A DNA stretch of 30,979 nucleotides from Candidatus Thorarchaeota archaeon (GTDB lineage: Archaea; Asgardarchaeota; Thorarchaeia; Thorarchaeales; Thorarchaeaceae): positions 1 through 30,979 of the forward strand of contig PRDI01000115.1 of assembly GCA_003345595.1 (NCBI GenBank), in the 5' to 3' direction. The notes beneath the pieces are model-generated. The model did not search any database, was not told where the DNA came from, and worked only from the letters and a program-made list of their open reading frames with translations. Position 1 is the first letter of the stretch. Each line of letters opens with the position of its first letter. Of this stretch, positions 3,215-6,413 are shown in pieces. The position numbers and the translations under genes are program-made.

Positions 3215-3994
3215 CTAATCGATGAGGACCACTGCGTCAACGAAGAGGTCATACTTCTCGTCTTCATTGAGGTTGTGGACCAACACCTTCTCCACTTCGT
3301 CCTGTCCTCTTATCTCAAGGAGCTTAGACCCATACAGTATCTTGATTCCTGAGGCCTCAAGGTCCTCCTTGAGTTTCGTATTGGTCCGTATCTGTGCATC
3401 TGGAGTGAGGAGCACTACTCTACCCGTATGCTTGCTGAGTTCGATTGCAGTCTCGAGAGACTTGTCACCTGTGTGGACGACGAGCACCCTCTTCTCTTTG
3501 AAGTCTTCAGGGTTCGTCACGGAGAGATAGACACCCTTTCCAAGGTAGTTCTCTTTCCCTATTGCGCATTCAGCTCCCCCGGCCTGAGTTTCTTCTCCAG
3601 GGATTACCTCTCCTGTCATCCTCGCACGGTATCTCTTGATCGCCTCGTGCAAGGCGTCGGCCGCCAAATTCGAACAATGCATCTTGATAGGTGGCAGCCC
3701 CTCCAGTTCTGAAGCGACGTCTTCCCTTGTGACTTCCATCGCTTGCTCCAAGGTCATACCCTTCACAAGTTCTGTCGTCATGCTACTCGTGGCGATTGCG
3801 GAGCCACAACCGAATGTCATGAATTTGGCATCCACGATGCGGTCGTCCTTAACCTTGATGAAGACCTCCATCAGGTCGCCACAGATCGGGTTGCCTACCT
3901 TTCCTACTGCCACGTCATCGCCCTCAAGGGTTCCGACATTGCGAGGATTCCTAAAGTGGTCCAACACTTTCTTACTATATTGTGTTGACTTCAT
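3215..3994 (-). CDS. iscU: Fe-S scaffold IscU/NifU-N fused to a degenerate thioredoxin-reductase-like NAD(P)H-binding domain
   Basis: YSKKVLDHFRNPRNVG, GNPICGD, FGCGSAIA and KMHCSNLA retain all three Cys. The C-terminal ~115 aa (GKGVYLSV...KRVLVVHTGDKSLETAIELSK...VDAVV) resembles the TrxR middle domain. ATG at 3994 follows the iscS stop. Confidence 0.9.
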   Translation of the reverse strand: MKSTQYSKKVLDHFRNPRNVGTLEGDDVAVGKVGNPICGDLMEVFIKVKDDRIVDAKFMTFGCGSAIATSSMTTELVKGMTLEQAMEVTREDVASELEGLPPIKMHCSNLAADALHEAIKRYRARMTGEVIPGEETQAGGAECAIGKENYLGKGVYLSVTNPEDFKEKRVLVVHTGDKSLETAIELSKHTGRVVLLTPDAQIRTNTKLKEDLEASGIKILYGSKLLEIRGQDEVEKVLVHNLNEDEKYDLFVDAVVLID

Positions 3995-4001
3995 CTTCAC
4001 A

Positions 4002-5171
4002 TCACCTTCTCCGTGCAACATAGATTGGGGAAAGACCCCTCAAACGAGCAACAATCTGAGGGATTGTTTCAATCGCCCTGTCGACATCGCTGTCAATGTT
4101 GAATCTTCCAAAACTCAGCTGAAGCGAACCATGAGCCTCTTCATGCACAAGTCCTGTCGCTATTAGGGTATGAGAGGGCTCAAGTGTCTTTGAGGTGCAT
4201 GCCGAGCCTGTTGAAACAGAAACTCCCAGATCCTTCAGAGAGAGGAGCATTCCCTCTCCTTCAATGCCGTCGAATCTGAAGTGTGCATTGCTGGCCAAGC
4301 GCTCAGTAGGGTGCCCGTTCAGATGGCTGTCGGGAACATCCTCTAGTATATGCGTAATGGCCTTGTCTCGATACCCTCTGAACCGTTCGACTTCAGAAGG
4401 CATTTCCTTCGCCATAATGTCAGCAGCAGCGCTCATTCCAACGATGCCCGGCATGTTCTCTGTGCCGGATCTGAGACCTCTCTCCTGGCCGCCGCCTATG
4501 ATCAAGGGGTTTATCCTGTACCCTTTTTTCATGTACAGGACTCCCACGCCCTTCGGTCCATAGATATCATTGGATGACAGACTCATCAGATCTATGTTGT
4601 CACGTTCTACATCGAGATCGATGAGCCCCTCCGCGGCAACTGCATCCGTGTGGAACGCAATGTTTCTCTCTTTCGCAAGCTTTCCAATCTCGGCGATAGG
4701 CTGCACTGTGCCTATCTCGTTACTCGCATAGCCAACAGATATCAGGATGGTCTTGTCGGTGAGTCTGCGCTCGAGCTTTTCGACCCTCACTCTTCCGAAT
4801 TGGTCGACTGGTACTGTGGAGACCTCAAAGCCCAGCGATACGAGGTACTTTGCTATGTTGTGAATAGAGATATGCTCAACCTCTGAGATCACTATATGGT
4901 TTCCTTTCTTCTTGTTTTTGAGCGCATAGCCAATCAGCGCCATGTTGCTCGACTCAGTCGCTCCAGAAGTGAACAGTATTTCGTCATCGTCGGCATTGAT
5001 GAACTTCGCAATGCGTTTCCTGCTCTGTTCAAGCGCGTCAGTAGCCACATCTCCTACCTTGTGCAATGAGGAAGGATTTCCAAAGAGGTCATGGAAGTAT
5101 GGCATCATCTCCTCTATGACCCTCGGGTCGACGGGCTTTGCCGACTGGTAGTCTAAGTACACTTCTCTCAT
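4002..5171 (-). CDS. iscS: IscS/NifS-like class V PLP protein, Archaeoglobus type (Schiff-base Lys replaced by Asp)
   Basis: YLDYQSAKPVD, GNPSSLH, FTSGATE, GGGQERGLRSGTEN and STGSACTS present; SSNDIYGPKG replaces SxHKxYGPKG. Start at 5171 or 5180 after GGAGG. Confidence 0.9.
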   Translation of the reverse strand: MREVYLDYQSAKPVDPRVIEEMMPYFHDLFGNPSSLHKVGDVATDALEQSRKRIAKFINADDDEILFTSGATESSNMALIGYALKNKKKGNHIVISEVEHISIHNIAKYLVSLGFEVSTVPVDQFGRVRVEKLERRLTDKTILISVGYASNEIGTVQPIAEIGKLAKERNIAFHTDAVAAEGLIDLDVERDNIDLMSLSSNDIYGPKGVGVLYMKKGYRINPLIIGGGQERGLRSGTENMPGIVGMSAAADIMAKEMPSEVERFRGYRDKAITHILEDVPDSHLNGHPTERLASNAHFRFDGIEGEGMLLSLKDLGVSVSTGSACTSKTLEPSHTLIATGLVHEEAHGSLQLSFGRFNIDSDVDRAIETIPQIVARLRGLSPIYVARRR

Positions 5172-5191
5172 GGCGAACATTGCCTCCTTGT

Positions 5192-5569
5192 CTAGAACCA
5201 CATGGTCGCGCTTGCTTCAAGGGCCAGATCATTGAGAGTTGCGGCGCCCACTATCTTGAGCCCAGGAATCAGGTCCACTTTCTCCCATCCCAACATCTGC
5301 TTTGATGCTTCGCAGACGTATATTGGGATTCCCGCCTTGAGGGTTGCATTGATCATATCGAGTACGCTTGGAAAGCTCCCGAGCTTCATCTTCTCCGCAA
5401 CACCGGGCTTCAGAATCCTCAGGGCCTGGCCCAAGAAGTATACCTTTGCATCGATATCCATCGCCTTTGCACTCTGCGCTAAAACAAGTGGAGAATACTG
5501 CCTTTCCGGATTGTCACTCGTCTGAACGTATAGAATCGAGTTCTTTCTTGTTGAAGTCTTCTTGCTCAT
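5192..5569 (-). CDS. DsrE/DsrF-like family protein (putative sulfur carrier)
   Basis: LVLAQSAKAMDIDAKVYFLGQAL...GIPIYVCEAS...IVGAATL DsrE-like pattern with conserved Cys. Confidence 0.85.
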   Translation of the reverse strand: MSKKTSTRKNSILYVQTSDNPERQYSPLVLAQSAKAMDIDAKVYFLGQALRILKPGVAEKMKLGSFPSVLDMINATLKAGIPIYVCEASKQMLGWEKVDLIPGLKIVGAATLNDLALEASATMWF

Positions 5570-5578
5570 TTCGTATCC

Positions 5579-5821
5579 CTACCTCTTCTTTCTTATTAGA
5601 AACTTCATGACCCCATCACTCATCTTCTCGAAGCTGACCAGTTCGTTCTGTGTCCTCTTGACGAACCTCTTGAGGTCCTCCTCTGCCGCGGGATCATCGG
5701 CAAGGACCTCGAGAATCTGACCAGATCGGAGTCTGTCCATGGCCTCCCTTGTCTGAAACAGCGGTTGAGGACAAAAGAGTCCCACGGTGTCCAGTGTTTC
5801 CGCAGGTTCGTCGCTCTTCAT
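5579..5821 (-). CDS. tusA: TusA/SirA family sulfurtransferase
   Basis: LDTVGLFCPQP...GQILEVLADDPAAEEDL is the CPxP signature; 80 aa. Confidence 0.9.
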   Translation of the reverse strand: MKSDEPAETLDTVGLFCPQPLFQTREAMDRLRSGQILEVLADDPAAEEDLKRFVKRTQNELVSFEKMSDGVMKFLIRKKR

Positions 5822-5951
5822 CTCTGCTCATCTCTTCACGATTGTTAATCAAAACAATAGTAAACTCTGCAGCTTATAAGCCTATGTATAAGTCAACCAC
5901 GGTTTCCACTTGGACAAGAGGCCCATACCAGTTCTCGGACTCCTACAGGGC

Positions 5952-6413
5952 TTACTCTCTTTCTGGACGTTCTGCGCCGGCCATTGACGTTACGTGCTTC
6001 TGAGATCTATCAGCGGCCAGCTTCTCCTGCATTGACCTACATCTGTCGTACCAGAGAATACGATACTGTGAGTGACTAATCACCCTGTTCCGAAGGTCTG
6101 GTATTGTCCTAATGCCTTCCTCCTTGCACCATTGGACACATATTGCATATTCCTCCCAGTCAAGGTTCTCGGTTTCCCACACGACCTCTACCTCTTGGTG
6201 GCCCGCAAGGAATAAGGCCAGTCCGCGAGTGTGACCGTCGGTGCATATCACCTCACCGGCGAGTTCCTTGACCGGGATGGGCTCCAGATGCTTGTGTGAA
6301 TCAGGCTCAAGACACTTCGTCACTTGGTCGAGTTTCGCACGGCTGATGTACAGCTGGCTCGGCTGGATTTTCTCCAGGGGCATCAGAAAGGTGTCGCTCA
6401 TGGGCCAGTCCAA
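5952..6413 (-). CDS. ParB/sulfiredoxin-like N-terminal domain protein
   Basis: IQPSQLYIS...PIPV...DGHTR matches the ParB/Srx fold core; no HTH. Confidence 0.65.
   Translation of the reverse strand: MDWPMSDTFLMPLEKIQPSQLYISRAKLDQVTKCLEPDSHKHLEPIPVKELAGEVICTDGHTRGLALFLAGHQEVEVVWETENLDWEEYAICVQWCKEEGIRTIPDLRNRVISHSQYRILWYDRCRSMQEKLAADRSQKHVTSMAGAERPERE

Follow-up and report, generated by a model that had tools for sequence, protein, structure and literature searches.

A TusA-DsrE-IscS-IscU cassette with a lysine-less IscS in a Thorarchaeon: linkage to sulfur carriers and a possible relay into iron-sulfur cluster assembly

Genes and proteins of the cassette

The window analysed here, a stretch of 30,979 nucleotides from contig PRDI01000115.1 of a Candidatus Thorarchaeota archaeon, carries on the minus strand between positions 3215 and 5821 four tightly packed and co-directional open reading frames (ORFs): tusA, dsrE, iscS and a gene for an IscU fusion protein. 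The source genome is a metagenome-assembled genome (MAG) of 2.73 Mb that is 83% complete, and the closest relatives of the window IscS carry the names Thorarchaeota or Promethearchaeota (Asgard archaea). An earlier note on this DNA had described the locus as a packed set of genes for two small sulfur carriers, an IscS lacking the pyridoxal phosphate (PLP) lysine and a fused IscU, and this gene content was confirmed by the ORFs and their Pfam matches: tusA (5579–5821, 80 residues; TusA, PF01206, E 1.2e-23), dsrE of the DsrE3 type (5192–5569, 125 residues; DsrE, PF02635, E 1.2e-14), a lysine-less, MisS-like iscS (4002–5201; Aminotran_5, E 3.8e-75) and the iscU fusion (3215–4021; NifU_N, E 3e-49, at residues 14–135, followed by a Pyr_redox/thioredoxin reductase (TrxR) match at residues 153–268). 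The iscS ORF opens with GTG, but its homologues align from approximately residue 11, so that translation probably starts with the ATG at 5171; the iscU fusion, whose homologues begin at MKSTQYS, probably starts with the ATG at 3994. Using these starts for iscS and iscU, the intergenic gaps amount to 9, about 20 and about 7 nucleotides. TusA, DsrE and IscS from the window each possess exactly one cysteine residue (C17, C86 and C335, respectively).

The window IscS is matched by the NifS/IscS models with E values of 1e-142 to 1e-117, all scores falling under the equivalog cut-offs. At the position where canonical IscS proteins read S(G/A)HK, the window protein exhibits SLSSNDIYGPKG: the site of the lysine that forms the Schiff base with PLP is taken by Asp212 (codon 4566–4568), and the loop cysteine Cys335 within GSACTS (codon 4197–4199) is kept. 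The best match in the PDB is IscS2 from Archaeoglobus fulgidus (4EB5, 4EB7, 4HVK; E 3.9e-133), with SSNDIYGPKG common to both proteins. Asp212 aligns with Asp199 of 4EB5, and the D199K variant 4R5F differs from 4EB5 at exactly that residue. The SSND motif was read in all 121 of the 121 closest database homologues. An IscS without this lysine is in itself not new, as it is the known A. fulgidus type: PMC7585200, with reference to Marinoni 2012, Yamanaka 2013 and Pagnier 2015, describes the A. fulgidus IscS as being without desulfurase activity because the essential lysine is an aspartate, and reports its cysteine as the fourth ligand of a [2Fe-2S] cluster on IscU. IscS1 of Methanosarcina acetivorans is likewise reported to be without the lysine.

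We compared the residues of 127 lysine-less and 77 lysine-bearing IscS homologues. Altered in the lysine-less set are Gln183 (to alanine, 88%), His205 (to asparagine, 100%) and Lys206 (to aspartate, 96%), with constraint also lost at the substrate-binding Arg354 and at the threonine of ATTP; maintained are Thr76, His104, Asp180, Ser203 and Cys328 (99%), and the KTLEPSH cysteine loop is more strongly conserved in the lysine-less clade than among normal IscS proteins. Judged on this pattern of changed PLP and substrate residues and a kept cysteine loop, the lysine-less clade would appear to have abandoned PLP chemistry, with the mobile cysteine arm still under selection. The cassette also differs in this respect from a canonical ISC system, of which an IscS with the PLP lysine is a defining part: here the lysine is replaced with aspartate, and the equivalents of Gln183 and Arg354 are lost in the clade. 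Among the best 150 cluster representatives at 50% identity we also encountered 15 IscS relatives that lack the lysine and bear other residues at the site (SSSA, SSGP, SGSD, SAQG, SAQQ, SSHT, SAHT and AANT among others), one of them named from a Proteobacteria MAG; the lysine-less representatives include P0128, P0133, P0158, P0177, P0205, P0185, P0215 and P0225.

Both carriers are well recognised by their Pfam families. TusA scores 83.1 bits with PF01206 (cut-off 28.6) and holds C17 in CPQP, an instance of the CPxP motif (codon 5771–5773); it lies under the NCBIfam TusA equivalog cut-off (53.4 vs 78), and the PDB protein closest to it is E. coli TusA (1DCJ/3LVJ). DsrE scores 54.9 bits with PF02635 (cut-off 22.7) and holds C86 in YVCEAS (codon 5312–5314). 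In the PDB it is closest to 3MC3 (SSO1125, a trimer of the DsrE3A type; E 1.5e-12), and C86 aligns with the first cysteine of that protein; as the second cysteine of 3MC3 is a leucine in the window protein, the latter is properly termed DsrE3-like and not DsrE3A. The Cys-Pro pair of TusA is at least 95% conserved over 77 neighbours of lysine-less IscS, and the DsrE cysteine is at least 95% conserved over 55 homologues.

The IscU scaffold domain (3617–3994) contains the ligands C47, C72 and C116 together with D49 and H115, all of which are invariant in 38 homologues of the fusion. It reaches 186.8 bits with NifU_clost (cut-off 187.9), and the PDB structures that it matches best are those of Methanothrix IscU (7C8M) and of A. 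fulgidus IscU (4EB5_C), the latter also being matched by an AlphaFold2 model in Foldseek (E 3e-16). Judged by its sequence, the window IscU is an intact scaffold. The same model of the fusion protein (pLDDT 86.8) places a disordered linker at model residues 131–140 ahead of the C-terminal domain (3215–3565, stop codon 3215–3217), which exhibits the fold of a TrxR NADPH domain: its 115 residues give Foldseek matches to the TrxR structures 2ZBW and 3F8D, with a root-mean-square deviation of 1.7–2.0 over about 119 residues, and positions 118–231 of the TIGR01292 model match residues 153–265 of the fusion, with no other part of this TrxR model matched. The TrxR motifs are degenerate, with GxGxxA (GGGNSA) appearing as HTGDKS, HRR as LTP and SVTN standing at the CxxC position; the FAD domain is absent, and no conserved cysteine was found in this domain over the 48 homologues compared. 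The fused domain is not a reductase. It could hardly bind FAD itself, and probably does not bind NADPH; speculatively, it is more likely to offer a docking platform, for instance to a reductant of the thioredoxin type.

Linkage of the carriers to the lysine-less IscS clade

Neighbouring genes were identified as stop-to-stop ORFs scored against profiles derived from the proteins of the window itself, and the genome sets used are samples. In the Asgard sample of 151 genomes a homologue was present in 94, and all 128 loci were taken. A tusA gene lies directly upstream on the same strand at 69/76 loci with a lysine-less IscS (ND, NE or NS at the site), compared with 0/43 lysine-bearing loci; dsrE is found upstream at 49 of the 76 and again at none of the 43. 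IscU follows downstream at 68/76 lysine-less and 17/40 lysine-bearing loci, whilst the fusion of IscU to the TrxR-like domain occurs at 44/76 and 0/40, respectively. The cross-phylum scan used one genome per species and alignment of a 75-residue segment, with loci selected by motif ([LI]SSND[IML]YGP and GGGQExG[LW]RS; n = 80): in these other phyla TusA and/or DsrE are encoded upstream at 42 of 43 lysine-less loci, as against none of 32 lysine-bearing ones. Carriers were likewise present at 29 of the 30 best loci from a Halobacteriota sample (401 genomes). The co-occurrence of an SSND-type IscS with tusA and dsrE, which the earlier note had put forward as a test, is very clear in all three samples. 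Among lysine-bearing IscS-IscU loci, L127 alone (G025:C79:10844-17004) has carriers nearby: TusA and DsrE are there encoded downstream of IscU on the same strand, 304 and 682 nucleotides from IscS.

The cassette occurs widely among anaerobic archaea and in some bacteria: the archaea belong to Bathyarchaeia, Hadesarchaea, Thermoplasmatota, Methanocellales, Methanosarcinales, Methanotrichaceae and Methanomicrobiaceae, and the bacteria to Actinomycetota, Rokubacteria/Methylomirabilota, Nitrospinota, Deltaproteobacteria, Bacillota, Stahlbacteria and Spirochaetota; retention of the cassette thus spans archaeal and bacterial phyla, with IscS identities down to approximately 45–50%. Outside of Asgard archaea the IscU-TrxR-like fusion was observed at L157, L188 and L203 (Actinomycetes), L182 (Stahlbacteria), L209 (Spirochaetota) and L179 (Methanosarcinales). 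The presence of the fusion in several bacterial phyla and one methanogen order suggests that the cassette as a whole moved between domains.

On a tree of 236 IscS sequences, calculated with FastTree and without an approximately unbiased test, the lysine state changes only twice. A single clade holds all of the ND, NE and NS proteins, including the window IscS and both IscS proteins from A. fulgidus, and a small separate group has histidine at the lysine site.

The A. fulgidus genome, identified by a 100% match to the IscS2 segment (G337), contains two loci of this clade. The paralogue locus is a full cassette, tusA-dsrE-iscS1-iscU, and the pair that was crystallised lies in the order feoB-dsrE-iscS2-iscU. 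IscS2-IscU (AF0564) resembles the window pair in the SSND motif, the aspartate at the lysine site, the loop cysteine, the adjacent IscU, the position in the same tree clade and the dsrE gene directly upstream; it differs in that its IscU is without the TrxR-like domain and in that only there does feoB lie upstream. At this locus (L250:1217-5454; G337:C1, ~509700–513950) the gene for a FeoB-like ferrous iron transporter is directly upstream of dsrE-iscS2-iscU, so that genes for iron import, for sulfur carriage and for the scaffold pair stand in one row. No other recognisable cysteine desulfurase was found among the 8 best class-V matches of A. fulgidus (two weaker matches were left out): apart from the two lysine-less IscS proteins these comprise one aminotransferase, two SepCysS and three decarboxylases resembling MfnA.

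We found no publication linking TusA or DsrE to a lysine-less IscS, although an earlier mention in Garcia et al. 2022 or in the 2019 review of TusA (Tanabe/Dahl) is possible. TusA goes unmentioned in PMC7585200, and TusA and DsrE are both absent from the publications examined on the A. fulgidus IscS-IscU complex. The carrier linkage, unlike the lysine-less IscS, thus appears undescribed in the literature searched.

Sulfur supply to the IscS-IscU pair

The explanation that we favour, giving it about an even chance of being correct, is that the cassette is an Fe-S assembly unit in which the half-reaction of cysteine desulfurase has been replaced by a persulfide/thiosulfonate relay. C86 of DsrE would pick up sulfane sulfur, polysulfide or thiosulfate/tetrathionate for instance, and would hand this sulfur to C17 of TusA; TusA would dock on IscS as the E. 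coli protein does, with transfer running oppositely, to C335 of IscS, whose loop would then carry the sulfur to the cysteines of IscU, there to be reduced and built into the cluster. The downstream half of ISC chemistry, in which the IscS loop cysteine acts on IscU, would be retained, and the PLP half would give way to trans-persulfidation from TusA. Sulfane sulfur requires two electrons per atom.

Each part of the relay can be compared with a known system. In the E. coli IscS-TusA complex (3LVJ; PMC2854127), Cys19 of TusA lies approximately 4 Å from Cys328 of IscS. E. coli TusA is the closest solved relative of the window TusA and shares with it the cysteine of the CPxP motif as well as R27, D45, D51 and F55 (by alignment against the residue list), whilst TusA R31, F58 and M24 and IscS W45 are not kept in the window proteins. 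Unlike the window protein, the E. coli IscS is active, and TusA receives from it the sulfur used in tRNA thiolation and molybdenum cofactor synthesis; as the window IscS would be unable to make a persulfide, any transfer between TusA and IscS must here run opposite to that in E. coli. Adjacent pairs of tusA and dsrE-family genes are also known from the DsrE3A/TusA and rhd-tusA-dsrE2 relays of Metallosphaera, Allochromatium and Hyphomicrobium (PMC11094781): these sulfur oxidisers exhibit cysteine-based persulfide/thiosulfonate carriage with documented transfer from DsrE to TusA, and their carriers load from polysulfide in vitro. Those relays feed dissimilatory oxidation (Dsr, sHdr), whereas the partner in the window is an Fe-S scaffold pair; the window cassette also has no linked rhodanese, unlike rhd-tusA-dsrE2, and its DsrE is without the second cysteine of 3MC3. 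The MIS system (MisS/MisU; Garcia et al. 2022 per PMC13066941) is likewise a pair of IscS-like and IscU-like proteins from archaea and anaerobes encoded in an operon without HscAB, Fdx or IscA. No additional components are described for MIS, whereas the window cassette counts two carriers and an extra domain fused to IscU among its regular members.

The sulfur source and the electron donor of MIS with a dead desulfurase are both called unknown in the same 2026 review (PMC13066941), and the A. fulgidus complex was crystallised without an answer to either question. The near-obligate link to two persulfide carriers names concrete candidate sulfur donors; since this linkage reaches the A. fulgidus loci, the question of the sulfur source is directly testable with proteins that have already been expressed and crystallised. 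The linkage is relevant, too, to the making of Fe-S clusters at a time when sulfur was not yet mobilised from cysteine, and to their biogenesis in Asgard archaea, which among archaea are the closest relatives of eukaryotes. A wider version of the relay, which we consider possible but rather doubtful, would make the lysine-less clade with TusA and DsrE a distinct and ancient cysteine-independent Fe-S system fed by sulfane sulfur from the environment or from metabolism (polysulfide, thiosulfate), in which the TrxR-like domain of some lineages recruits a thioredoxin-type reductant to supply the two electrons per sulfur, and which serves as the main or only route of sulfur to the clusters in the genus of this Thorarchaeon and in A. 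fulgidus.

Several points weigh against the relay. The steps from DsrE to TusA and on to IscS, including the direction of transfer, are ones that we infer. The residues through which E. coli IscS binds TusA (W45, E49, D52, R55, R220 and R237) show no distinct gain in conservation in the lysine-less clade and do not discriminate between the lysine-less and the lysine-bearing sets. About a third of the cassettes are without dsrE, no tusA was found among the profile-scored neighbours of the crystallised A. fulgidus iscS2-iscU locus, and a second lysine-less IscS-IscU pair, present in the source genome and in 14 of the 31 members of its family, has neither TusA nor DsrE nearby. The linkage is also, because of the two changes of lysine state on the tree, one old cassette that was inherited and retained and not a case of repeated convergence, with an independent-pairs test on the IscS tree yielding 2 usable pairs only; the evidence for functional coupling consists of the retained gene order and the carrier cysteines, not of statistics over independent events. 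Furthermore, free sulfide suffices for related minimal systems (PMC13066941), and the source genome encodes at G000:C75:17025-18296 a SufS-family protein with both the lysine (SVHKMCGP) and the catalytic cysteine (GFHCAGP). Because of this enzyme, cysteine independence, which the earlier note had proposed together with a reversed flow of sulfur through the carriers, is not established for the source organism; the interpretation given in the note is supported in part, through the conserved linkage, through the IscS type being one reported as inactive (PMC7585200) and through the lack of another desulfurase among the 8 best A. fulgidus matches.

Two of the alternatives concern the origin of the sulfur. 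Free sulfide could feed the IscS-IscU pair, as proposed for A. fulgidus and methanogens, with TusA and DsrE being co-transcribed for another reason, be it tRNA thiolation or molybdopterin, the buffering of reactive sulfane sulfur or the regulation of access to IscS in competition with IscU. We regard this as rather unlikely, although it draws strength from the ability of both MIS and SMS to use sulfide (PMC13066941), from the carrier-free second pair in the source genome and from E. coli, where TusA accepts sulfur from IscS and competes with IscU (PMC2854127). An acceptor role of this kind would require a persulfide that the lysine-less IscS is unable to make, and it predicts the opposite of the distribution observed, in which the linkage is confined to the lysine-less clade and none of 75 lysine-bearing loci shows it; the source genome also holds a further tusA/dsrE pair (C64) and a TusBCD-like trio (C128) elsewhere. 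Alternatively, the relay could exist with cysteine as the ultimate source, a separate desulfurase of the SufS type loading TusA and DsrE, and here the SufS-family protein with its HK lysine and GFHCAGP cysteine (440.7 bits vs a cut-off of 475.1) is the candidate. This protein is unlinked to the cassette and also scores as a relative of selenocysteine lyase, in a genome that uses selenocysteine, and no such enzyme is among the 8 best class-V matches of A. fulgidus, where the cassette would therefore work without one; we judge this alternative to be improbable.

The cassette could also traffic selenium and not sulfur, an alternative raised by the earlier note that we consider very improbable. 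A SelD with an in-frame TGA in the source genome and a weak match of the window TusA to YedF models point in this direction; on the other side, the TusA model outscores the YedF models on this protein, IscU is integral to the cassette, and in five Halobacteriota genomes that carry the cassette, that of A. fulgidus among them, no SelD reaches the family cut-off. On this last count the selenium proposal was left unsupported, and selenium trafficking was rejected as a general function of the cassette. The relay of sulfane sulfur through DsrE and TusA remains the explanation that we prefer.

Further genes of the source genome and the flanks of the cassette

No SufB/D was found in the source genome or in two other genomes of its genus (83–93% complete), whilst a SufB/D-type scaffold is present in 17 of the 31 genomes of the family. 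For this genus, in which a SufB-type scaffold was not found, a housekeeping role of the cassette is probable. The operon is made up of tusA, dsrE, iscS and iscU only, with none of iscR, iscA, hscBA or fdx within it (no genome-wide search for these genes was made). No YeeE/TsuA thiosulfate transporter was found in the source genome at its 83% completeness, and the one rhodanese found there is unlinked to the cassette.

The second IscS-IscU pair of the source genome (G000:C101:13266-14402, minus strand) is also without the PLP lysine, having histidine at the site with GSACSS kept. Across the family this paralogue (L133, L002, L260-L272) shows H, V, R or L at the site in 14/31 genomes, and on the tree it represents an independent loss of the lysine. 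A second SufS-family protein (G000:C49:22240-23475) is likewise without the lysine (LSGNVGFMGSPG).

The cassette is flanked by a gene for a Usp protein and by an ORF of 153 residues. In the intergenic region 5' of tusA (5822–5951, minus strand), a TATA-like TTATAA (5874–5879) is followed just upstream of the tusA start by the perfect palindrome ATTGTT-N6-AACAAT (5841–5858), which may be an operator. The 153-residue ORF upstream of tusA (5952–6413, minus strand) is without any Pfam match, and four further Thorarchaeota loci (L020, L022, L023 and L025) have homologues of it in the same orientation upstream of their cassettes.

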